Below, in pieces: positions 973 to 48,082 of a stretch of DNA of 64,000 bases. The stretch spans positions 1,856,001-1,920,000 of the forward strand of contig CAXXSR010000001.1 in NCBI GenBank assembly GCA_963662615.2. The letters run 5' to 3'. The notes beneath the pieces were generated by a model, which made no database searches, was not told the DNA's origin, and was given only the letters and a program-made list of their open reading frames with translations. The stretch comes from Dehalococcoidia bacterium. Lineage in GTDB: Bacteria; Chloroflexota; Dehalococcoidia; Bin125. The position numbers and the translations under genes are program-made. Position 1 is the first letter of the stretch; each line of letters starts with the position of its first letter.

Positions 973-1188
973 GCGCGATCCGCCGCCGTGCTCTTTCGCA
1001 TCCGCCGTACCTGTCCCCCCAACGAATCTGGTGTGCCGCTCCTCGCCCCAGGATCGGGGCTCGCGTCAGCCGCGCGCGATCGGCCATCCACTCCGCGGTT
1101 CTGATCTCGCAAGGGCGCGGGACCAGACGGCCTCGCGCCGATCAGGCATCCTCAGGCGCTGCCTTCACTCCGCCGGCGCGTCACATCT

Positions 1189-2766
1189 TTGGCGGCGCGT
1201 TGGTCAATAGGACGGGGAGTGTGGCGAGTGCGCAAACGGGCGATCGGTGGCCGCGGCCTCGACGACGCCGCCGCGCGATCACTGCAGGCGGTGGACCGCA
1301 TCATCGCGGCCCGCCGGCGGCCCCCGCGCGCCGGCCCACCGGCGGCGCCCTCCGACCCGGAGCGCCTAGCCGATGCCGCCCTCGCGCTCACTGAGGCCTG
1401 GGAGAGCGCCCCCTCCGTCGACCCCGACGCCGTCTGGTCCCGCGTCGCTGCGGGCATCAGCGACCCCGCCGCTCAGCTGCCGCCTACCTCCGAGCCGGAG
1501 CGCCTGGCCCGCGCCGCCCTCGCGCTCACCGAGGCCTGGGAGAACGCCCCACCTGTCAACCCCGACGCGATCTGGGCCCAGATTGAAGCCGGCATCGACA
1601 GCAGCCCCCGCCGCCCGCGCTCGGCCCGCGCCCGCCTAACCACTCTCGTCCGTGGGCGGCCGGATCGCGGCCGCTGGATGGCCGGAGCCGCGGCTGCGGC
1701 CGTCGCGGCGACGGTCCTGGTCGGCGCCCTCCTCGTTCTGCCCGGAGAGCCCAGCGTCGGTCCAGACAACGGTCTGGCCGCTTCTCCTGCCGTCGCTTCG
1801 CCCCCTCCGGCTGAGGCCCCCGACGCCCAGCCACCGCCCACCGTCGCCGCCCCCGCCCCCGACCCCGAGCCGCCGCCCACCGACGCGGCCCCTGACCCCG
1901 GCCCGCCGCCCACCGTCGCGACCCCCGACCCGGAGCCGCCGCCCGCCGTCGCCGCCCCCGACCCCGAGCCGCCGCCCACCGACGCGGCCCCTGACCCCGG
2001 CCCGCCGCCCACCGTCGCGACCCCCGACCCGGAGCCGCCCCCCACCGTCGCCGCCCCCGATACCGAACCGCCCCCCATCGCGGAGAGCCCCCCTCCTGCC
2101 CAGGAGGACCTGCCCCCCGCCGCCGAGGGCCCACCTCCCGCCCCAGAGAGTCCGCCTCCCGCCGCCGAGCCGCCCCCGGTCCCCTTTGCAACCTCCATCG
2201 AGGAGCTGTCGAGCCTCGTCAATCAGGCGCTGGCCGACCAGCAACTCTCGCAGACAGAGGCAGGCGCCATCAATGATCGCCTTGCCGCGCTCGTGGCGGA
2301 CCTGCAAGCCGACGGCTCCGCCCTCCTCGCACTGACCCTCCCCGATCTGCACCTTGCCGCTGACACCCTAGAGAGCATGCGGGAGGAGCTGGCCCCGTTC
2401 GCACTGGAGCCATCCGATCCCATCGCGACAACGCTGGCGCCAACACTGGCGTCGCTCGACACGCTCTCGACGGCCGTCCAAGACGCCATCACCGCCCTGG
2501 AAGCGCAGACTCCGGCATCCCCACCGCCGGACTCCGAAGGGGAGTCAGAGACGGGCGCAACCGGCTCCGACCCACCCGCCTCCGACCCACACGCCTCCGA
2601 CGCACCCGCCGACAGCGCCGCCGGCGGCGCGAATCTCACCGACCTCCCTTCTTTCGACACCTTTGCGGAGCTGAATGCGGAAATGGAGTCTCGCGGCTAT
2701 CGCTACAACCCCACGCTCGGCAAATTTGAGCTGAAGCCGGGCGGGTCGGAAGCGCCGGCGCCATGA
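1189..2766 (+). CDS. Putative membrane-anchored anti-sigma factor (duplicated N-terminal motif, TM helix, Pro-rich linker, helical extracytoplasmic domain)
   Basis: TM segment 'AAAAAVAATVLVGALLVLP'; overlaps the ECF start by ATGA; N-terminal and helical regions resemble ORF 42774-43934. Start uncertain. Confidence 0.65.
   Translation: MAARWSIGRGVWRVRKRAIGGRGLDDAAARSLQAVDRIIAARRRPPRAGPPAAPSDPERLADAALALTEAWESAPSVDPDAVWSRVAAGISDPAAQLPPTSEPERLARAALALTEAWENAPPVNPDAIWAQIEAGIDSSPRRPRSARARLTTLVRGRPDRGRWMAGAAAAAVAATVLVGALLVLPGEPSVGPDNGLAASPAVASPPPAEAPDAQPPPTVAAPAPDPEPPPTDAAPDPGPPPTVATPDPEPPPAVAAPDPEPPPTDAAPDPGPPPTVATPDPEPPPTVAAPDTEPPPIAESPPPAQEDLPPAAEGPPPAPESPPPAAEPPPVPFATSIEELSSLVNQALADQQLSQTEAGAINDRLAALVADLQADGSALLALTLPDLHLAADTLESMREELAPFALEPSDPIATTLAPTLASLDTLSTAVQDAITALEAQTPASPPPDSEGESETGATGSDPPASDPHASDAPADSAAGGANLTDLPSFDTFAELNAEMESRGYRYNPTLGKFELKPGGSEAPAP
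1858..2056 (+). repeat. ~99-bp in-frame tandem duplication encoding Pro-rich linker
   Basis: PDPEPPPTDAAPDPGPPPTVATPDPEPPP occurs twice, near-identical at DNA level. Confidence 0.85.
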
Positions 2767-3359
2767 CCCCCCCGCGCGTCGCAACGGACGCAACCAACGG
2801 CGCCGCCACCGCGGAGATGGCGCGCGCCCCCTCGTCCGACCTCCTCGTCGCCAGCGCTCGCGCGGGCGACCGCGACGCCTTCGCCACGTTCTATTCCCAG
2901 CGCGTCGGCGCCGTCTCCCGCTACATCGGCGCGATCCTCCGCGACGTCGATCGCACCGAAGACGTCACGGCGCAGACTTTCTTGCGCGCCTGGAACGCTC
3001 TCCCCGCCCTGCGCAAGGTCAACCGCTTCGACGCCTGGCTGTTCCGGATCGCGCACAACGAGACCATGGTGGAACTGAACCGCCACGCCACCGCTCCCCT
3101 GGACGAAGTACCCGAACCTGCTGACGAGAGTCGCTTCAATTCCCCCAGCGACCGCCTGGAACAGAAGGACGAAGCTGAGCGCGTGAATCGCGCCTTGCTC
3201 CGCCTCCCGGACGAGCAACGGCAAGTGTTGGTCCTTCGCTACCTCCGCGAACTGTCGTACGAAGACGTGGCCAGACAGTTGGGAAAGACGGAAGGCGCGG
3301 TCTACACCCTCAAGTTCCGCGCCCTTAGACGGTTGCGCCAAGAGTGGGAGGCGGAATGA
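2763..3359 (+). CDS. ECF RNA polymerase sigma factor
   Basis: Region 2 'GDRDAFATFY..EDVTAQTFLRAW..FDAWLFRIAHN'; region 4 'LPDEQRQVLVLRYLRELSYEDVARQLGKTEGAV'. Confidence 0.95.
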   Translation: MTPPRVATDATNGAATAEMARAPSSDLLVASARAGDRDAFATFYSQRVGAVSRYIGAILRDVDRTEDVTAQTFLRAWNALPALRKVNRFDAWLFRIAHNETMVELNRHATAPLDEVPEPADESRFNSPSDRLEQKDEAERVNRALLRLPDEQRQVLVLRYLRELSYEDVARQLGKTEGAVYTLKFRALRRLRQEWEAE

Positions 3360-3427: not shown

Positions 3428-4362
3428 TCACCATTGCTCCCAAACAGCGGCCTTGCGCAGATGCACCCAGACCGCTTGGCCCGTGACGAGACCATCGAGA
3501 TCGCTGAGAAAGCCCGGCGCGCCGGGACGGTAGACGCGGTACTGCTGCCGCCAGGCGTCGAACCCGTACACGGCGACCAGCGCATCGTCCAAGCCCCTCA
3601 CTGCCTCAGCCACGGGACGCCCGCTCCCGGTCCAGGCAACGAGGTTCCACCCGCTCTCAAGCCACACCACCCGAGGCCCTCGCGACGGCGGTCGCAGCCA
3701 CAAGAGGCCGCCCCCGTCCAGCTCACCAGATTCCACCCGGGGTACAGGTAGTACGGATCGAAGGCCGCGAAGTGGTTCGTGGACCGAAAGTCCATCCCCG
3801 CGTAGGCGTTGGCGCTCTTTGTCGCGGGTAGGTCCCACCCCTCCAGGGCATACCGTCCGGTCAAGGGGACGGTCGTGCGCAGCTCTCCGCCACCGGGCGT
3901 GGTATGGACGGCCAGGTGGAGGTGAGCCAGGCCGTGATTCTCGGTGGCCCCCGGCGGCGCCACCTGGCCCAGCTCTTGACCCCGACGCACCGTGGCGCCC
4001 AACTCCACGCCTCGATGCGGGAGAAGGTGGCAGAGCAGGACGGCGATCCTGGGGCTCGCCTCAATCGCCACGCAGCCTGAGGAGGCGACGGACACCGTCC
4101 CGGCCACCGGCGCAAGCACCGGCGTTCCGGCCGTGGGGCCGTCGCTGCGCACAATGTCCAGTGCGTGGGGATCAACGCCCGTGTGGCTTCCGGTGTTATA
4201 GCCCGATTCCACGGACCACACCGTCCCGGCGGGCGCGGGCAGTGGCAGCCCCGAGATCTCGGCCTGACCCGGTCTCGGCCAAATGATGGCGGCCCCCACG
4301 GCCGCCACTACAGCGCCCCCGAGGGCGAGCCGTTTTACAGGAGCCAATCGCACGCGTCTCAA
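3428..4362 (-). pseudogene. M23-family peptidase with C-terminal GWNLV-repeat domain, frameshifted/deleted near 3715
   Basis: Signal peptide, 'H...ALD' and 'HLH' M23 motifs in ORF 3598-4362; after 'YPGWNLVSWTG' the homologous C-terminus continues in another frame (ORF 3428-3838). Confidence 0.75.
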
Positions 4363-34180: not shown

Positions 34181-34653
34181 CCGTTCGTCCTGACCTGTCC
34201 TTCCCACCTGGGAAGGCACCTGTCAAAGGGTCGAGGGACGAACGCGACATCGCCTAGACCATGAACCCTCGGCGCGAGCGGCCACGAACGTCGCGCTCCT
34301 TCGCACCCGCTGCGAGCGCGCGTGGAAAAAACCGTTCGTCCTGACCTGTCCTTCCCTCTTGGGAAGGAGCCCGTCGAAGTACGAACCCCCTTCTCCACTC
34401 CCTCATCCCCCTCTCCATCGCTCGCCCATCGAGAGGGGGTCAGGGGGTGAGGTGCCCAACCCGCTCACCCTGAACTTGCCTGTCCTGAGCCTGCCGAAGG
34501 GTCGAAGGGTCACCCTGACCTGTCCTTCCCTCCTGGGAAGGAGCCTGTCGAAGGACGAACGCCGACATCGCCCGGAGCATGAACCCTCGGCGCGAGCGGC
34601 CACCAACGTCGCGCTCCTTCACACCCGCCGCGAGCGCGCGTGGAAAAAAACCG
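34181..34653 (+). repeat. Composite repeat cluster (A-B-A-C-A-A-B)
   Basis: Family A cores at ~34181, 34332, 34461, 34510; family B at ~34262 and 34579; family C at ~34407. Confidence 0.9.
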
Positions 34654-39781: not shown

Positions 39782-40357
39782 TCAGGATCCCCGCCGACGG
39801 ACCACCGACCGGAACGTCCCTCCCCGCTTGCTGGCTGTGCCGTCCATCGCCTGGCGCATCCGCTTCAGTCCCCGCTGCTGCAGCGCCCGCACCGCCTGTT
39901 CCGACTTCCCCATCTGGCGGGCGACTTGCGCGTGCGAGAGCTGCTCAAAGTAGCGAAGGACCAGCACCTGCCGCTGCGTCTCCGGCAGCACCAGCAGCGC
40001 GCTGCGGAGACGCTCGGCATCGATCTTGCCTTCCAGCAAGGCAACGGGGTTCCCGTACCTGCTCCCCTCGGCCCGCTCAGGAACGTCCGCCAGCGGCGCC
40101 ACCGGCCGCCGTCTCAACTCGCGCACGACTTGGTGATGCGCAATGCGAAAAAGCCACGCGTCGAACCGTCCCACCTGCCGCAGCTGGCGCAGGTCCCTCC
40201 ACGCAAGCAGGAACGTCTCCGCCACCACGTCCTGCGAGCGATCGACGTCCCGCAAGATCGAGCCAACGTAGCGCGACACGGCCCCTGCGCGCGCGCGGTA
40301 GAGCGCCGCGAACGCTTCGCGGTCGCCTCCCTTCGCACGGGCGACCAACTCTTCCAC
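39782..40357 (-). CDS. ECF RNA polymerase sigma factor (paralog of 2763-3359)
   Basis: 'GDREAFAALY..GAVSRYVGSILRDVDR..FDAWLFRIAH', 'LPETQRQVLVLRY..VARQMGKSE.AV'. Confidence 0.95.
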   Translation of the reverse strand: MEELVARAKGGDREAFAALYRARAGAVSRYVGSILRDVDRSQDVVAETFLLAWRDLRQLRQVGRFDAWLFRIAHHQVVRELRRRPVAPLADVPERAEGSRYGNPVALLEGKIDAERLRSALLVLPETQRQVLVLRYFEQLSHAQVARQMGKSEQAVRALQQRGLKRMRQAMDGTASKRGGTFRSVVRRRGS

Positions 40358-40541
40358 TGGACTTTCGTGCCCTGCCTTTACGCCGCCTTCGTTGCCAGTG
40401 GCGCTAGCGTGCCTTCTCGTTTCGGTTCGATCCGGTGACGACGCTCTCCTCCCCGAAGCCGCCGCACGACCGTCCGCTCAACCGTAACAAGACGGACGGG
40501 GCCCTTGGGCCCCGCCCCTCGATCGCTAATCGATAGCCGCG

Positions 40542-42716
40542 CTAGTCGTCGTCGTCGTCCTCCTCATTCTCGTCCTCGTCCTCCTCATCGTCGGCGTTGT
40601 CATCCAAGGCCAAGGCCTCGGGGCCGTCCGAATCCTCCTCACCGTCCTCCTCGATCTCGATTTGCATCTCACCATCTTCGATCTCGATCTCAATCTCCAT
40701 CCCACCGACGTGGATCTCCATCTCGAATTCGATCTCGCCGTCGCTGAGCGCTCCCGCTCCCGGGTCGATCCCCAGAGCGTCGAGGAGACTGCGCACGAAA
40801 GCCAGGATGTCGGCCGCCCCCAGGCTAGAGATGACGGGGCCGTCGTTGTCGAGGTTGGTGACCGCAACGTTGGCCGGGTTGATCCCGTCGAACGTGCCGT
40901 CCCCACTCACGGCCGCATCGGTGACAACCGTGTAGGCGATGTTGCCATCGTCCACCGCATCAGCAACACCGGTGACAGTGACCGTCTGCGGCGTCGAAAA
41001 GTTGACCGCAGTAAAGGTCAGGCTCGTCGGCGAGACCGTTCCCTCCGTCGTGTCATCGGAGGAGATACCGATCGTCACGTCCGCCGTCGGCTCGGACGTC
41101 AGGACCACGGTGAAGGTGTCCGTACCACCGCCCTCGGTCGTCTCCAAGCCCGTCGTGGGGGTCACCGTGATTCCGGCCCCCTCCACGATGGCCGTGACGG
41201 TGACCGTGCCCGACGTTGCCGGACCCGTACCGCTGGACAGGGCGCTCTGCTTGACAGTGACGTCCAGGGTGCGGTTCGCGTCGAAGTCCGTCCCATCGTA
41301 TTCCAGGGTGATCCTCGCCCGGGTATTACCGAGGCGGGTGACCGTCTCGATCGTCGTGCCCGGCACGGTGCCGCCAACGGCGAAATCGCCCGTAGCGAGC
41401 GCGGCGTCAAACGTGCCGCCGTCTATCTCGACCCTGACCGTCGCTCCGTCCAGGTCGTCCTCGCGCAGCGAGGCCGGGTTGGTCGATAAGATCGTTGCCG
41501 TCAACGCGCCTACTGCTGCCACATTGAAGGCGCTGCTGATGGCCGCTGTGAGCACGGGCGACGACGTGAACTTGAGCGTGTAGCCGGTCCCTGGGGTGTC
41601 AACCTCCAGGTTCGTGAACGTCACCACGCCGTTCACGGCCTCTACCGTCAGCGTGCCGCCCTCGGGGTTGGTCTCGATCGCCGCCGTCACTTCGGTAGTC
41701 GAGTCCGACGTCACGACGCTGCCGAACTGGTCCTGGATTGCAATGACCGGCTGTGGCGACAACGCCAACCCTGCGATGCCGTTGCCCGGTTGCGTCTGAA
41801 TTCCAAGCTGGGTAGCCGTCCCCGCCGACACGTTGAAGGGGCCGCTCGTGGCCGGCACCAGGCCCGTAGCCGTGAAATCCAGCGTGTAGCCGTCCCCGGC
41901 CTTGTCGATCTCCAGGTTCGTGAACGTCGCCACGCCGTCCGATACCATTACCGTCTGTGTCCCGCCCAGGACGCCCGTGCCCGGGTTGTTGTTGATCGCC
42001 GCCGTTACGTCAGTGGTCGAGTCCGAGGTCACGACGTTGCCGAACTGGTCCTGGATCTCAACGACCGGCTGTGCCGTGAAAGCGGTGCCGCCCGTCGCCC
42101 CGGCGGGTTGCGTCTGCACGGCGAGCTGTGTAGCCGCTCCATGCGTGACGGTGATGTTCGAGATACCGCTATTGATCTCCAGAACAGGAGCGCCCGCCGT
42201 TCCGGTCGCGGTGATCTCGCCCCCCTGCGCTCCCGGATTTGCTCCATTCGTCGGCTGGAGCAGGCTCGGCGTCCCGCCTCCGACGGTGATGGTGAGGGCG
42301 CCCGCTGCGCCCGCGCCGGTGAAGGTAATGACAACATCGCCGGAAACAATTGCTGCACTCGCGGCGGCAGTACCTACGCCTGCGCCCCCGACGACCACAT
42401 CAGGTGCCGGAGTGACAAAGACGAGGCCTGTTGGTGGATTCAGTACGACCGTCTCGCCGTCCCCGACCTCCGTGCCGTCCGCGAACGTGATGACGAGGTC
42501 CTGTGAGTTCGCGGCATTCAGATCCGTCGCCGCCGGAGACGTTGCGTCCTCGGCGGTATCGACGCTGATGGTGACGTCCCCAAAGCCCGTAGTGAGAGCG
42601 CCACCGGCATCAGCGATGACGATCATCACGAACAGCGCGACCGCCAGCGCGGCCACGCTGGCAGCCAGCGTCGCGATCAGCGGCGCCCTGAAGAGTCTCC
42701 GTCCTCGTGCTTCCAT
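40542..42716 (-). CDS. Large surface protein with Ig-like repeats, Calx-beta-like domain and acidic C-terminus
   Basis: N-terminal signal/TM; two 'ATQL..QTQP..QPV..IQDQFG.VVTSDSTT' repeats; 'TTEGGGTDTFTVVLTSEPTADVTI'; E/D-rich tail. Confidence 0.85.
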   Translation of the reverse strand: MEARGRRLFRAPLIATLAASVAALAVALFVMIVIADAGGALTTGFGDVTISVDTAEDATSPAATDLNAANSQDLVITFADGTEVGDGETVVLNPPTGLVFVTPAPDVVVGGAGVGTAAASAAIVSGDVVITFTGAGAAGALTITVGGGTPSLLQPTNGANPGAQGGEITATGTAGAPVLEINSGISNITVTHGAATQLAVQTQPAGATGGTAFTAQPVVEIQDQFGNVVTSDSTTDVTAAINNNPGTGVLGGTQTVMVSDGVATFTNLEIDKAGDGYTLDFTATGLVPATSGPFNVSAGTATQLGIQTQPGNGIAGLALSPQPVIAIQDQFGSVVTSDSTTEVTAAIETNPEGGTLTVEAVNGVVTFTNLEVDTPGTGYTLKFTSSPVLTAAISSAFNVAAVGALTATILSTNPASLREDDLDGATVRVEIDGGTFDAALATGDFAVGGTVPGTTIETVTRLGNTRARITLEYDGTDFDANRTLDVTVKQSALSSGTGPATSGTVTVTAIVEGAGITVTPTTGLETTEGGGTDTFTVVLTSEPTADVTIGISSDDTTEGTVSPTSLTFTAVNFSTPQTVTVTGVADAVDDGNIAYTVVTDAAVSGDGTFDGINPANVAVTNLDNDGPVISSLGAADILAFVRSLLDALGIDPGAGALSDGEIEFEMEIHVGGMEIEIEIEDGEMQIEIEEDGEEDSDGPEALALDDNADDEEDEDENEEDDDDD

Positions 42717-42773
42717 TGCGGTTCCGTCCTTTCCGCGCAGACACGCTGCCAATGAGGCCAGGGGGAGTGCGCT

Positions 42774-43934
42774 CTAGTCGCCGTCTTCGCCGTCGTCCTC
42801 ACTTTGCACGCCGGCCCCATCCAGGGCCTCCTCACACGCCTCTTCCGCCTCCTCGTCGTCCAGTTCGTCGCACGCCTCCCTGAGCGCGTGGTACTCAGCC
42901 TTCGCCCCCTTCTCGACGTCATCGATCGCCTCTTCGCAGGCGCCCAGCTCCTCCTCGCTGCTGATTCCGCTGCACAGCTCCCCCACAAGCGGCAGCGGCG
43001 CCGTGGAGCCGGCCTCGCCCGCGGCGCCGGAATCCGCCGAGTTGAGCTGCGCCTCGACCGCCTCTTCAAGGTCGTCCAGGGTGTCTTGGCAAGCCTCCAG
43101 CGCGTCTCTGCTTGTCACCTCACTGCAGCTCTGCGCCACGATCTCAACCAGCTCCTCCACGTAGGCCTCTTCCACGCTGTTCACCACGGAGCCCAACGTC
43201 TCCAGTGAGGCGCCCAGCGAGTCCGAAAGGGTGGGCGCAGCCGTCACGGAGGCGCTCTCTCCAGGATCCGCGGCAGGCGGCGTGTCGGGCTTCGTTCCCG
43301 TTTCTGGTTCCGCTTCCGCCTCTCGCTCTGTCCCCTCCACCCCCGGGACCGACGCCAGCGAGCCCTGCACCTCGGCCAGGGTCGCCGCCACGCTCTTCAG
43401 ATCGTCAAGCGCAAGCTCGGAAAGGACGCCCCCGTCGTCGTCAAGCGCCGCTGCCAGCGCCCCCGCGCGCTCGTGCACCTCGGCACGCTCCGCCGCGGAG
43501 ATCTGCGCATCCAAAACGATCGCGTCGGTGAGCCGCGCCAGATCCTCAACGTCCCTGAAGAACTCGGCGCTGGCGTCGTCCTTCGGTATGAGCAGGAGCA
43601 CCGCGCTAACGGCCACGCCGATCAACACTGCGGCCGCCACCGCGGACGCGACCCGAGGCACCACCGCGGCGAAGGCGGGCAAGGGCGGCCCCCAGCCTGC
43701 CCATCCACGCTGCCGGGTCCGCTCAATGCCAGGCTCCACCTTGTCCCAAATGGCATCGACGTCAAGGCACGGACCGCTCGCAGCGAACTCCTCGATCGCC
43801 AGCGCTGCATCGGCCAGAGGGTCACGCTCCGCGTCCGCGGGGAGCGCCTCCCCCTGCCGACGCGCGGCGATCCGCCGCTCCACCGCGTCTAGGTCGTCTG
43901 CGTCCACGTCGGCGGCGTTGGGCTTGTCTGCCAT
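42774..43934 (-). CDS. Putative membrane-anchored anti-sigma factor (paralog of 1189-2766)
   Basis: 'LDAVERRIAARR..LADAALA..DVDAIW..VEPGI', TM helix, helical domain, Cys-containing acidic tail. Confidence 0.7.
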   Translation of the reverse strand: MADKPNAADVDADDLDAVERRIAARRQGEALPADAERDPLADAALAIEEFAASGPCLDVDAIWDKVEPGIERTRQRGWAGWGPPLPAFAAVVPRVASAVAAAVLIGVAVSAVLLLIPKDDASAEFFRDVEDLARLTDAIVLDAQISAAERAEVHERAGALAAALDDDGGVLSELALDDLKSVAATLAEVQGSLASVPGVEGTEREAEAEPETGTKPDTPPAADPGESASVTAAPTLSDSLGASLETLGSVVNSVEEAYVEELVEIVAQSCSEVTSRDALEACQDTLDDLEEAVEAQLNSADSGAAGEAGSTAPLPLVGELCSGISSEEELGACEEAIDDVEKGAKAEYHALREACDELDDEEAEEACEEALDGAGVQSEDDGEDGD

Positions 43935-43995
43935 GTAGCCGGACCCCCGGCCCGCACCCTCTCTGCGACGGAGCGCTGGAGAGAGGAGGGCCTCC

Positions 43996-44330
43996 CCTGA
44001 CCGCTCCTTCCCTCCTGGGAAGGAGCCTGTCGAAGGGCCGAAGGAGCGAGCAGCGCTTGAGACTCGTCCCCTTTAACTGGTCCGGCGGAGCGGAGTTCGT
44101 GACGATCGATCAGGGGCGGCTTCTGTTAACCGCTTGACATCCATGACCGTCGCGCGACCCCGGATGACACACGAGCGCGCGTCCAATAACCGCTCACCCT
44201 GAGCCTGTCGAAGGGTCGAAGGGCGCCGACGTCGTCCTGATCATCAAGCCCCAGCGCGAGCGGTCACGAACGGCGCGCTGGCCCAGACGAGTCGCGAGCG
44301 CGGGCGAAAAAGTCGAAGGACGAACGCCGA
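43996..44330 (+). repeat. Composite repeat cluster (A, partial B, A, B)
   Basis: cctgaccgctccttccctcctgggaaggagcctgtcgaaggg; ccgctcaccctgagcctgtcgaaggg; gcgcgagcggtcacgaac..cgagcgcgggcgaaaaa. Confidence 0.75.
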
Positions 44331-44629: not shown

Positions 44630-45137
44630 CGTTGGGCTCCTTCCCATCCCTATTCAAGCTCTGTCGTTCGCTCCTCGACTCCTGAACACGCTCGACCTGT
44701 CCCGCCTATAGCGCGGCGGCGCTTCCGCCTTCGGCCCCAGCGCGCTGCGCCGTCTGCGAATCCGCGAAGAAAGGTCTGGCCACGGGCGCCGGCCCGCCGC
44801 CGTGGAGAGGGCACGACCGCGGAGCGCCCTCTGCCGTGGCTCGAGCCACGCGGCAGCGAGCGCCCACCACGCGCCGTCGAGGGCCGGTTGCCGGACGCTG
44901 TGGAACCGGTTCTGTCGAACACAAAAGAAGGCAACCATCCGCGAAACGCCTCCTTGCGTAACGCGGCGCTGCCTTCTGCGTCTGTCTGTTGACAGCCGGC
45001 GCTCGGTACCTTCGCTGCCCCTTGACACGCGGGGAGGGGTCAGCGGAACGTCGGCTCGTCTATCTTCGCCCGCAGCCTAACGGCGCCTCCAGCCGTTATC
45101 AAAGGCGTGGACGCGGCGCTGCCCCGCCACTCCCCGC

Positions 45138-45716
45138 TCGCCCTGGGGCAGGTGGGTGGGACAAAAACCAAGGGCGGGGGGCGGGCATCCGCTCACCGTT
45201 CGCTGGCCTGTCCTGCGCTTGCCTGTCCTGAGCCTGTCGAAGGACCGAAGGATCGAAGAGCCTGCCCTGAGCTTGTCGAAGGGGCGAAGCGCCTCCTCCT
45301 CCCTCCCCACCTCCTCCCCCTCTCCATCGCTCGCCGATGGAGAGGGGCCGGGGGTGAGGTTCCCCCTCCGCCCTGCGCCTGCCTGCCCTAACCTGTCCTT
45401 CCCTCCTGGGAAGGAGCTTGCCGAAGGGTCGAAGCGCGCACCTTCCGTTCGTCCTGACCTGTCCTTCCCTCCTGGGAAGGAGCCTGTCGAAGGACGAACG
45501 CCGCCGACATCGCCCCGAGCATGAACCCTCGGCGCGAGCCGCCACCAACGCCGCGATCCTTAGCACCCGCTGCGAGCGCACGTGGAAAAAACCGTTCGTC
45601 CTGAGCCTGTCGAAGGACGAACGCCGCCGACATCGCCCAAAGCATGAACCCTCGGCGCGAGCGGCCACCAACGCCGCGATCCATCGCACCCGCTGCGAGC
45701 GCACGTGGAAAAGCCG
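45138..45716 (+). repeat. Composite repeat cluster (D-A-A-C-A-A-B-A-B)
   Basis: About 580 bp built almost entirely from the four modules, downstream of folE. Confidence 0.9.
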
Positions 45717-46705: not shown

Positions 46706-48082
46706 TTACTCCAGCAAGCGCACCACCGGGTCACCGCCGGGAATGACGTAGTTCACGAACTCGATCGCAATGTTCCCCGAGCCGGAAAGGTCGAACGTAT
46801 CGACGATGATCTGGACGGGCCCCAAGTTCCCGCTGCCGGACATCGCGAGCTCTGCGCCGGGGAGGTAGATGACACCGCCCAAGCTGTCGCCGCTGCCCTC
46901 CAGCGTCATGCTCTTGTCGCAAGCGATGTCCTGCCAAAAGACAATGTCCGTATAGGGCCCGCTGGCCGGACCCGTGAAGACATTGTTCCCCGAGCCGCGG
47001 AGATCGATCCGTTGGCAGCGCGCCGGGCTCGCCGGATTACCTTGGGGGACGTACGGGTCGTTGGTGTTGTAGATCATCACCCCGTTCCCGTTGAGGTCGC
47101 CCGATCCGCTGTACACGAAACCGCCGCCCGCCATCACGTAGATCCCGGAGGCAAAGACCAGATTGCCGCTGGCGGACATCTGGATGCCGCCGTAGTACAC
47201 GCCGGGCTGGATGACGGTCGGGCCCGAACCGGTGATATGGAGAGTCGCTGGGGACTCGGCGGTGCCGCCGGAGTCGGGCGAGATGCTGGCCGGCGACGTG
47301 CCCGGCGGCGTCAGGCTCGCAAGCGGATCGGGCACGCGCGCGCCGTACGGCTCCGGCCAGGGCGTGTAGACGCCCGACCCGCTGAGCGTCTCCGTCCCCT
47401 CGTAGTAGTAGTGGATCATCGACGCCTGCACGTCGCCGCTGCCCACGCCGTTCAAGGCCCCGTTCGACGGGTTGTTGCAGGCGGAATTCACCATGATGCC
47501 GCCGCCTTGAATGTCCAGAAGGCCGCTGCCGGACTTGTCGTAGGAGCGGCACTCGTCCTCATTCAACGTCAAGAGCGCGTAGCCGCCGCTCCCCCCTGGA
47601 ACGCTGCGCGCCACCGCGCGCGCGCTGCGATTCCCAAAGTCGTGAATCACGTACGACGGCGGCGCCGTCACCGTGACCTCAACGGCCATCGCGTCGCCCT
47701 GGTACGGCGTCACCACGGTCACGGGCGCGCCGTCCACACCGTCCCCGAAGCCGTTCCCCTCCGCATAATCCTGTGCCACCGCCGTCGCCAGCGAAGCGTT
47801 CGGGAGGTCCTGGGCCGCAGCGAGAGAGGCTGCATCGGCCGCGTTCTGCAACTCGCGCCGCGTGCTCAGCGCCATGCCGCCATCAATGACGATGCCCATG
47901 AACACAAGGAGGAGGGGAAACAGCAGCGCGACAAGGATGAGAGTCAGGCCCTGCTCATCGCCCCACAATCGCCCACGCCGGCAGACACGGAGATGCGCGC
48001 TCCCCCAGCGGCCTGCGGCCGCCAACGCCCGGCGCCAACGCCCCACTGGACGAGCTGACAATCGCGGTGGCCGAGCTGTCAT
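46706..48082 (-). CDS. TadG-like (Tad/Flp pilus-associated) protein
   Basis: 'DEQG..LILVALL..GIVIDGG..RRELQNAADAASLAAA'; Gly/Ser-rich beta C-terminus ending 'VRLLE'. Confidence 0.88.
   Translation of the reverse strand: MTARPPRLSARPVGRWRRALAAAGRWGSAHLRVCRRGRLWGDEQGLTLILVALLFPLLLVFMGIVIDGGMALSTRRELQNAADAASLAAAQDLPNASLATAVAQDYAEGNGFGDGVDGAPVTVVTPYQGDAMAVEVTVTAPPSYVIHDFGNRSARAVARSVPGGSGGYALLTLNEDECRSYDKSGSGLLDIQGGGIMVNSACNNPSNGALNGVGSGDVQASMIHYYYEGTETLSGSGVYTPWPEPYGARVPDPLASLTPPGTSPASISPDSGGTAESPATLHITGSGPTVIQPGVYYGGIQMSASGNLVFASGIYVMAGGGFVYSGSGDLNGNGVMIYNTNDPYVPQGNPASPARCQRIDLRGSGNNVFTGPASGPYTDIVFWQDIACDKSMTLEGSGDSLGGVIYLPGAELAMSGSGNLGPVQIIVDTFDLSGSGNIAIEFVNYVIPGGDPVVRLLE

Follow-up and report, generated by a model that had tools for sequence, protein, structure and literature searches.

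An ECF sigma factor module of Dehalococcoidia with a putative membrane anti-sigma factor encoded first and a surface protein as its probable output

One of the main routes by which bacteria sense the state of their envelope is through pairs of extracytoplasmic function (ECF) sigma factors and anti-sigma factors, and many anti-sigma families are still unnamed. One described pair is formed by RsbN and sigma-BldN of Streptomyces venezuelae. Published work (PMC6101532) describes RsbN as a single-pass anti-sigma factor with a class III domain, in which a three-helix cytoplasmic domain (residues 1–91) suffices for sigma binding. RsbN also has a large extracytoplasmic portion, shows no similarity to other anti-sigma factors and has no relatives outside its genus, and the rsbN gene is a direct target of sigma-BldN, whose regulon consists of secreted surface proteins, the chaplins and rodlins (PMC6101532). 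I analyzed a 64-kb stretch of DNA (hereafter the window) from the 2.66-Mb, two-contig genome of a Dehalococcoidia bacterium. It contains two copies, labeled A and B, of a module in which an ECF sigma gene is preceded by the gene of a membrane protein, and in copy B the gene of a surface protein lies between the two.

RsbN/BldN is the nearest functional parallel of the copy B module. The likeness extends to a single-pass architecture, a three-helix binding domain (here modelled), a putative self-regulated promoter and a surface-protein target (here proposed). The copy B module differs in that its anti-sigma-like gene lies upstream of the sigma gene, and in its lineage, Chloroflexi/Dehalococcoidia. 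As argued below, the module is real, forms a coherent whole and varies the known ECF sigma/anti-sigma design by a previously undescribed, putative anti-sigma family, the reversed gene order and a candidate cognate promoter. In some genomes, the gene of a surface protein is also linked to the module, and its charged tail matches that of the anti-sigma-like protein.

The initial annotation of this DNA had described three open reading frames (ORFs), with the surface-protein gene sitting between the anti-sigma-like and sigma genes, and had referred to a second copy of the module. All three ORFs and their order were recovered, on the minus strand, as was the paralogous pair of copy A on the plus strand. 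The genes are as follows.

42774–43934, minus strand: gene of a 386-aa single-pass membrane protein, the putative anti-sigma factor (ORF).
40542–42752, minus strand: gene of a secreted or anchored surface protein, 736 aa if it starts at a TTG, 724 aa if at the ATG of 42716 (ORF).
39782–40357, minus strand: ECF sigma factor gene of copy B, 191 aa (Pfam and NCBIfam).
1228–2766 (alternative start 1189), plus strand: anti-sigma-like gene of copy A, same family as the 386-aa protein (tblastn and alignment).
2763–3359 (alternative start 2817), plus strand: ECF sigma gene of copy A (ORF).

In copy A, the ATG at 2763 overlaps the upstream stop codon (ATGA), and the slot for a surface gene is empty, with no gene between the anti-sigma-like and sigma genes.

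The sigma factor of copy B (sigma B) possesses only domains 2 and 4, matching Pfam Sigma70_r2 (PF04542, E 1.6e-10) and r4_2 (PF08281, E 5.5e-15), and scores 80 bits against the NCBIfam model TIGR02937 (cut-off 42.9), which places it among the ECF (group IV) sigma factors. That of copy A (sigma A) is 55% identical to it. The clade of sigma B is small, with 92 proteins at E ≤ 1e-20, and its named relatives come from Chloroflexi and Dehalococcoidia metagenome-assembled genomes. The BldN model, TIGR02952, is among the top three NCBIfam matches of both sigma A and sigma B; their scores, 93.7 and 87.5 bits respectively, against a cut-off of 206.45, leave both outside the BldN family (TIGR02952; ECF121).

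For the 386-aa protein, a word-indexed homology search returned only its own cluster. The family is described here through a profile, A1, made from four members, namely the proteins of copies A and B and two relatives. An exhaustive search with this profile among 1,835,955,588 proteins returned 119 representatives at E ≤ 0.001, 77 of them at E ≤ 1e-10, and the copy A protein is its best match in its own genome (E 4.8e-93). The family appears to be without annotation in the resources consulted: no Pfam family occurs in more than two of 104 members, the 27 listed members of its cluster are all unnamed, neither the 386-aa protein nor the surface protein matches any Pfam or NCBIfam model above threshold, and literature searches found no published description of the 386-aa protein's family. 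The NCBIfam model NF052375, labeled 'antisigma', was considered and set aside; it matches six of 104 members weakly, and in this genome it matches other anti-sigma factors and neither copy A nor copy B. Two members, P0176 and P0207, carry sigma region 2 at their C-terminus (residues ∼395–500). This suggests gene calls that were merged with the adjacent sigma gene, across an overlapping stop and start, or else true anti-sigma/sigma fusions.

Four parts can be distinguished in the 386-aa protein, from sequence and from an AlphaFold model with a mean predicted local distance difference test score (pLDDT) of 73.

43707–43934, minus strand: N-terminal cytoplasmic domain, aa 1–76, with three helices predicted to bind sigma (model and co-fold).
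43587–43679, minus strand: single transmembrane (TM) segment, aa ∼86–116 (hydrophobicity).
43350–43577, minus strand: extracytoplasmic three-helix bundle, aa 120–195, the family-defining part (alignments and model).
42774–43229, minus strand: variable C-terminal module, aa 236–386, with Cys hairpins and a poly-acidic tail (sequence and model).

The N-terminal helices are predicted at residues 12–26, 37–53 and 59–72, with block-mean pLDDT values of 93–97 over residues 11–40 and of 78–90 thereafter, down to 78 by residue 70. The TM segment is the sole hydrophobic stretch of the protein, with 19-residue windows of Kyte–Doolittle (KD) hydropathy above 1.6 starting at residues 85–103, and it is modelled at low confidence. 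The ectodomain bundle (helices 121–142, 147–166 and 176–194, pLDDT 85–97) is the best conserved part of the family in both the A1 and A2 alignments. Structure searches with the model gave no close relative: Foldseek returned no match at E ≤ 0.001, in searches that were filled by the ectodomain and barely covered the N-terminal domain, and VIA-align returned only generic three-helix bundles at Z 8–9, a level common for helical models.

The C-terminal module is where family members differ. Among the 90 members of at least 250 aa, 24 carry Cys pairs, 25 carry a ∼65-residue beta repeat, none carries both, and 23 have acidic tails. Cys-Cys spacings of 11 and 12 are the commonest in the family, and the Cys-spaced helical repeats reported initially for the 386-aa protein were found again as three CX11C pairs, each around a predicted helix-turn-helix, its six ectodomain cysteines lying 12 positions apart in each pair (270/282, 321/333 and 355/367). 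The last 140 residues of the protein contain 44 Asp+Glu and 4 Lys+Arg. In the copy A protein, the cytoplasmic helices 2 and 3 are duplicated internally as two near-identical segments of ∼45 residues, and a long Pro-rich repeat separates the TM helix from the ectodomain bundle; it has no Cys and no strongly acidic tail.

The genomic setting of the family argues for a partnership with the sigma factor. In nine of nine loci with enough DNA to be read, a family member lies upstream of, and co-oriented with, a sigma gene whose product is 47–57% identical to sigma B. The two genes are adjacent in copy A, G009, G210, G290 (twice), L039, L040 and L041, and are separated by the surface gene in copy B; a tenth locus, G016, was left out of this count because its DNA ends inside the gene. 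The stop codon of the anti-sigma-like gene overlaps the start codon of the sigma gene in four loci (copy A, L018, L020 and L041). When 80 genome loci were gathered from the sigma alignment instead, the family was found upstream in all three whose sigma is at least 47% identical to sigma B, vs none of the 77 at 39% identity or less. It was likewise found upstream in none of 80 metagenome loci, where the sigma factors are at most 46% identical to sigma B (at most 41% in full-length matches). Elsewhere in the phylum, the family profile also has weak matches, in six genomes and at E 7e-8 to 6e-6 per genome, to small membrane proteins, whose N-termini it recognizes. In six cases out of six, the gene of the matched protein lies directly downstream of an ECF sigma gene, as those of classical anti-sigma factors do, and one of the six proteins carries DUF5667.

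I then modelled the complex of sigma B with residues 1–85 of the 386-aa protein, in three runs and with three controls, using alignments that I built. The co-fold score was 0.82 (0.81, 0.82 and 0.82 in the individual runs), vs 0.01 for the best control; in a benchmark, 116 of 157 solved complexes attained the mark applied to such scores, as did 2 of 215 mismatched pairs. At least 81% of contacts are common to the runs, and the partner pLDDT is 67 or more. Contacts are predicted between residues 14–22 and 39–76 of the 386-aa protein and residues 9–58 (domain 2) and 113–171 (domain 4) of sigma B. By prediction, the protein would thus do what defines an anti-sigma factor, namely bind its cognate sigma across domains 2 and 4. 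The proposal that the upstream gene encodes an anti-sigma factor, already made in the initial annotation, is well supported by the synteny, by the overlap of stop and start codons, which points to translational coupling, and by a co-fold score that its controls do not approach. The 386-aa protein is, on these grounds, most likely a single-pass membrane anti-sigma factor of a small family without a name in the searched databases.

How does this family relate to described anti-sigma factors? No sequence similarity to RsbN was detected when the family profile was searched against all PDB chains at E ≤ 10, which returned three unrelated chains. The classical ECF sigma/anti-sigma pairs of the phylum, whose anti-sigma factors are of DUF5667 type or small and unnamed, resemble the family in possessing a short helical N-terminus that closes with a conserved '..VW..V...L' segment, followed by basic residues and one TM segment. 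They differ in that the anti-sigma gene lies downstream of the sigma gene, and their sigma factors are 27–37% identical to sigma B in four full-length alignments. DUF5667 (PF18915) was found in none of 104 family members at E ≤ 0.01, and an hhalign comparison between the family and one DUF5667 protein aligned only cytoplasmic residues 35–79, with a probability of 45%. In a protein atlas, DUF5667 and zf-HC2 clusters are among the nearest to the 386-aa protein, with scores of 0.83–0.84 that are to be taken as leads only. One classical anti-sigma gene of this genome lies just past the window end (G000:C1:1923579-1924241, minus strand), and its product scores above the NF052375 cut-off, at 135.6 bits.

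The class I anti-sigma factors (RseA, RsiW, RslA and ChrR; zf-HC2) resemble the predicted complex in their insertion between sigma domains 2 and 4 and in their membrane tether, but they possess four helices where three are modelled in the copy B protein. The 386-aa protein has neither a Pfam match to zf-HC2 (PF13490) nor an HxxxCxxC motif, and its sole cytoplasmic Cys, C56, is an Arg in a 98% identical ortholog. As for FecI/FecR/FecA-type signalling, no FecR or TonB-receptor family was found in either upstream protein.

Sequences upstream of the family genes were then examined for promoter motifs, with counts obtained by an IUPAC pattern search of the window and of the stored loci. The features concerned are the following.

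44077–44103, minus strand: candidate ECF-type promoter GTCACG-N17-CCAG, 169 nt upstream of the anti-sigma start (pattern).
43935–44076, minus strand: long 5' leader with an intergenic repeat resembling repetitive extragenic palindromes (REP-like), 12-mer core at 44034 (sequence).
1180–1206, plus strand: weaker promoter-like site of copy A, which does not fit the strict pattern.

Eight of nine loci have a hexamer GT(C/A)AC(G/A) between 48 and 81 nt before the start codon (-48 to -81), and copy B has it at -169, where the greater distance is due to the REP-like repeat inserted in the leader. The second element, CCA(T/G), lies 17 nt after the hexamer, and the full pattern precedes the anti-sigma-like gene in five of the nine loci with upstream DNA (copy B, G016, G210, L039 and L041). 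The candidate promoter of copy B is the sole match of the strict pattern GTMACR-N17-CCAK on both strands of the window, where 0.63 are expected; 77 unrelated genome loci of ∼12 kb each contain seven. The initial annotation had proposed a motif search upstream of both modules; the strict form is present at copy B, and copy A has only GTCACA, at -48, with no CCAK element behind it. The hexamer had already been defined when L039 and L041 were added, and it is present in these two loci at -75 and -72 respectively. In G210, the full pattern also precedes the surface gene and ends six bases before the first start codon of the longest ORF, suggesting that the true start of this protein is probably later. 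An earlier guess for the -10 element, CGnnnC at N13, has 88 matches in the genome without clear enrichment, and was replaced.

The 12-mer core of the REP-like repeat has 57 copies in the genome, seven of them in the window. Several of these are grouped in the interval that separates the module from the GTP cyclohydrolase I gene (43935–44260 and 44900–45700), one of them inside the 5' leader, and others lie at 34552 and 49044.

The surface protein had been labeled as an Ig/Calx-beta protein, Ig standing for immunoglobulin, and its parts, with the element that follows its gene, are listed here.

41517–42149, minus strand: two tandem Ig-like domains, aa 202–412 of the 736-aa form (model and Foldseek).
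40833–41174, minus strand: Calx-beta-like domain, aa 527–640 (transitive similarity only).
40545–40817, minus strand: C-terminus with a helix, three amphipathic Glu/Ile strands and a poly-Asp/Glu tail (model and composition).
40494–40517, minus strand: GC-rich hairpin immediately past the end of the surface gene, resembling a terminator, an attenuator or a stabiliser (fold).

The protein begins with a long hydrophobic stretch, a signal or an anchor (aa 20–58), and its location at the surface is putative. A close strain retains an ortholog with 99% identity. Homologs number 801 and match through the Ig repeats only, with a coverage of 24–59% among the 119 non-self proteins listed. No direct Pfam match was obtained for the Ig-like domains, and the label is borne out at the level of the fold: the tandem domains are modelled at pLDDT 90–98 (residues 190–400, 724-aa numbering), and the Foldseek matches include intimin D0-D1, domains 5-6 of the S-layer protein SbsC, domains 4-5 of Sap and the invasins InvD and InvE, at E 6e-6 to 4e-5 and probability 1.00. 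The best Foldseek row overall is BbgIII, at 2.5e-7. For the Calx-beta part of the label, the case is divided. PF03160 matches neither the whole protein nor residues 527–645 alone, even at E ≤ 10, and this part is not confidently modelled. Residues 527–678 nevertheless align to the surface protein of G210, the Calx-beta-like part with 39% identity over 95 aa at E 3e-11, and the G210 protein itself matches PF03160 in three stretches at E 4e-13, so that the similarity is transitive.

At the C-terminus, the EIEFEMEI..EIEIEIE..MQIEIE stretch pointed out in the initial annotation appears in the model as three beta strands preceded by a helix, at pLDDT 64–78 (helix 634–647, strands 664–670, 673–680 and 683–690, 724-aa numbering). 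Across the three consecutive strands (40545–40700), Glu alternates with Ile, Met or Phe, such that one face of the predicted sheet is carboxylate and the other hydrophobic. Designed peptides with such faces assemble when the charge is neutralised, and by analogy the Glu/Ile sheet would suit cation- or pH-dependent self-association. An amphi-Trp domain (TIGR04354) is not indicated, with 15.8 bits vs 31 and E 0.013 over residues 643–701, which contain no Trp. I also considered that this C-terminus might share a domain with the beta-repeat ectodomains of the anti-sigma-like family, and dropped the idea. In a database of 120 sequences, BLASTP matched it to a single family member at E 1e-4, but a hidden Markov model (HMM) of the repeat, made from 50 units of 27 proteins, gave -0.8 bits (best domain 3.1), and the surface protein was not among its top ORFs in the genome.

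Both upstream proteins end in very acidic tails, as initially reported (27 Asp+Glu to 3 Lys+Arg in the 386-aa protein and 34 to 0 in the surface protein, over the last 60 residues). Their rank in the genome is extreme. When the ORFs of the whole genome, taken from stop to stop with a minimum length of 150 aa and numbering 7,834, are ordered by Asp+Glu in the last 40 residues, the surface protein and the 386-aa protein are the top two, with 26 and 19 (the next has 15), the surface protein having the most acidic C-terminus of all. The tail composition of the anti-sigma-like and surface proteins also matches within a genome and differs between genomes, in three of three pairs. The copy B tails are of Asp and Glu with almost no Arg. 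Those of G210 (L018, G210:C9, 4208–5839 and 6519–7970, minus strand) contain 38 and 24% Asp, 28 and 28% Arg, and 15 and 19% Gly, and each ends in a Trp-containing Gly/Arg stretch. Those of G009 combine Asp, Glu and Arg with Cys. No extended DNA identity of the kind left by recent gene conversion was found between paired tails. With three pairs this co-variation is no more than suggestive. Such matched, extreme tails hint at a partner in the envelope, or an ion environment, common to the two proteins.

A surface gene is linked to the module in three of the nine readable loci, between the partners in copy B and downstream of sigma in G009 and G210. The neighborhood survey that the initial annotation had called for thus confirms a linkage beyond copy B, but one that is not general and does not involve orthologous proteins throughout. 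Where the surface gene stands apart, it shares an upstream dyad with the anti-sigma-like gene, TGTAACG-N13-CGTGTC in G009 and GTCACG-N13-CGCGCCAT in G210. Because of the linkage in three of nine loci, these separate copies of the motif and the matched tails, the surface protein is more likely the main output of the module than a co-sensor, judging from sequence. The initial annotation had left both roles open, and it is the role of main target that is favoured, by a surface gene downstream of sigma with the promoter-like dyad of the anti-sigma gene in G009 and G210.

The three genes of copy B had also been described as an operon. A gap of 21 nt between the first two agrees with this; the GC-rich hairpin, and the ∼135 nt that then precede the sigma gene, make it less certain. 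The hairpin has a 10-pair stem with nine GC pairs and is followed by GTCTTGTT, and the 76-nt region folds at -39.1 kcal/mol (z -3.06), with none of 200 shuffles as stable. Sigma B would be supplied either by partial read-through, at a lower level than its inhibitor, or from a promoter of its own that was not recognized.

Considering all of the above, I regard as probable a reversed-order ECF sigma/anti-sigma switch in which the inserted surface gene is the main output and the sigma factor reads an autoregulatory promoter. In such a switch, the anti-sigma gene comes first and the surface-protein gene is placed between the partners. The three cytoplasmic helices of the anti-sigma factor would lie between domains 2 and 4 of sigma and hold it at the membrane, as the co-fold, the synteny and the gene overlaps suggest. 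Its outer part, composed of the three-helix bundle and a module that varies with lineage, would receive an envelope signal and release sigma, a role proposed from the architecture. In copy B, this outer module would consist of disulfide-stapled helical hairpins ending in a poly-acidic tail. Free sigma would then read GT(C/A)AC(G/A)-N17-CCA(T/G) upstream of its own operon, as the conserved motif suggests, and, in genomes with a separate surface gene, a second such promoter in front of that gene. In copy B, the surface gene would be co-transcribed with the anti-sigma gene, and the hairpin would let fewer transcripts reach sigma.

Several points weigh against this switch. The co-fold is a measure of model confidence, and because ECF sigma/anti-sigma complexes of other families have been solved, its score may partly reflect a general likeness to these. 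Co-divergence of sigma and anti-sigma is weak over nine pairs, with a Mantel r of 0.32 in a mirror-tree test, a value equalled or exceeded in 196 of 5000 permutations. Part of the refinement of the promoter motif used the very loci that enter its counts, its -10-like part being refined after L039 and L041 had been seen, and the CCAK element is missing from four of nine loci. An unbiased count of shared 6-mers is not significant: GTCACG occurs in four of seven upstream regions, and 594 of 1000 resamples have some 6-mer in at least five. The surface gene is missing from six of nine loci, which have unrelated neighbors, and the surface proteins differ in kind, with Ig and Calx-like domains in copy B, three Calx-beta domains in G210 and DUF11 in G009. 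Finally, transcription could stop at the hairpin that follows the surface gene, and the 135-nt gap after it contains no convincing sigma B promoter, only a GTCACC without a -10-like part.

A stronger form of the three-component sensor proposed in the initial annotation would make the surface protein a co-sensor that binds the ectodomain of the anti-sigma factor, with cations bridging the acidic tails as one possibility, and that sets the switch. Its appeal lies in the tails, two adjacent ones that are the two most acidic in the genome and whose composition co-varies in all three genome pairs, in the position of the surface gene between the anti-sigma and sigma genes of copy B, and in the Calx-beta domains of the G210 partner. 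Calx-beta domains bind Ca2+ in other proteins. I nonetheless consider it unlikely, as six of nine loci work without a linked surface gene, the downstream position and separate promoter-like dyad in G009 and G210 are the layout of a target, and two like-charged disordered tails offer no obvious interface. The matched tails can also be read as a feedback in which the switch senses its product, both tails competing for, or reporting on, the same envelope site or cation pool, and this remains a speculative suggestion that I would not expect to hold.

The surface gene could instead be a passenger, inserted by chance without any functional tie, with the hairpin ending an independent transcript. That only three of nine loci have a surface gene, of three different kinds, would be expected for a passenger, as would the strength of the hairpin and the membership of the Ig repeats in a very widespread repeat family. 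However, the surface gene follows the anti-sigma gene after only 21 nt, with no promoter-like site in the gap, a shared promoter dyad precedes the surface genes that stand apart in G009 and G210, the tails match, and a Calx-like domain is common to the copy B and G210 surface proteins, which makes chance insertion distinctly unlikely. It is finally conceivable that the 386-aa protein is an envelope protein of the sigma regulon, and that sigma is controlled otherwise. The protein matches no known anti-sigma family model, its gene order is unusual, and the fold searches gave generic helical bundles only. This is very improbable given a co-fold score of 0.82 vs 0.01 with contacts on both sigma domains, the strict pairing in nine of nine loci with overlapping stops and starts, and the match of the N-terminal profile to classical sigma-adjacent anti-sigma factors in six of six cases. 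The reversed-order switch with the surface protein as its main output is the reading retained here.

The genes flanking copy B encode NHL, aldolase, cyclase, GTP cyclohydrolase and Tad proteins. The last of these, a Tad/TadE-like pilus assembly gene (46706–48082, minus strand), is located ∼2.8 kb upstream of copy B, and an M23 peptidase gene (3598–4362, minus strand) is convergent with the copy A sigma gene; no link to the modules was seen for either.

These results define a putative anti-sigma family that combines a three-helix sigma-binding head, one TM segment, a three-helix ectodomain bundle, and interchangeable Cys-hairpin or beta-repeat modules. With a family signature, a reversed gene order and a candidate promoter at hand, the regulon is therefore testable. 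If the product-sensing feedback were true, the switch would measure its own installed surface product and adjust its output, and the tail 'code' would co-evolve within each genome. More broadly, the match between the tails of the sensor and its likely target within genomes may bear on a general role of such tails in envelope sensing or anchoring.

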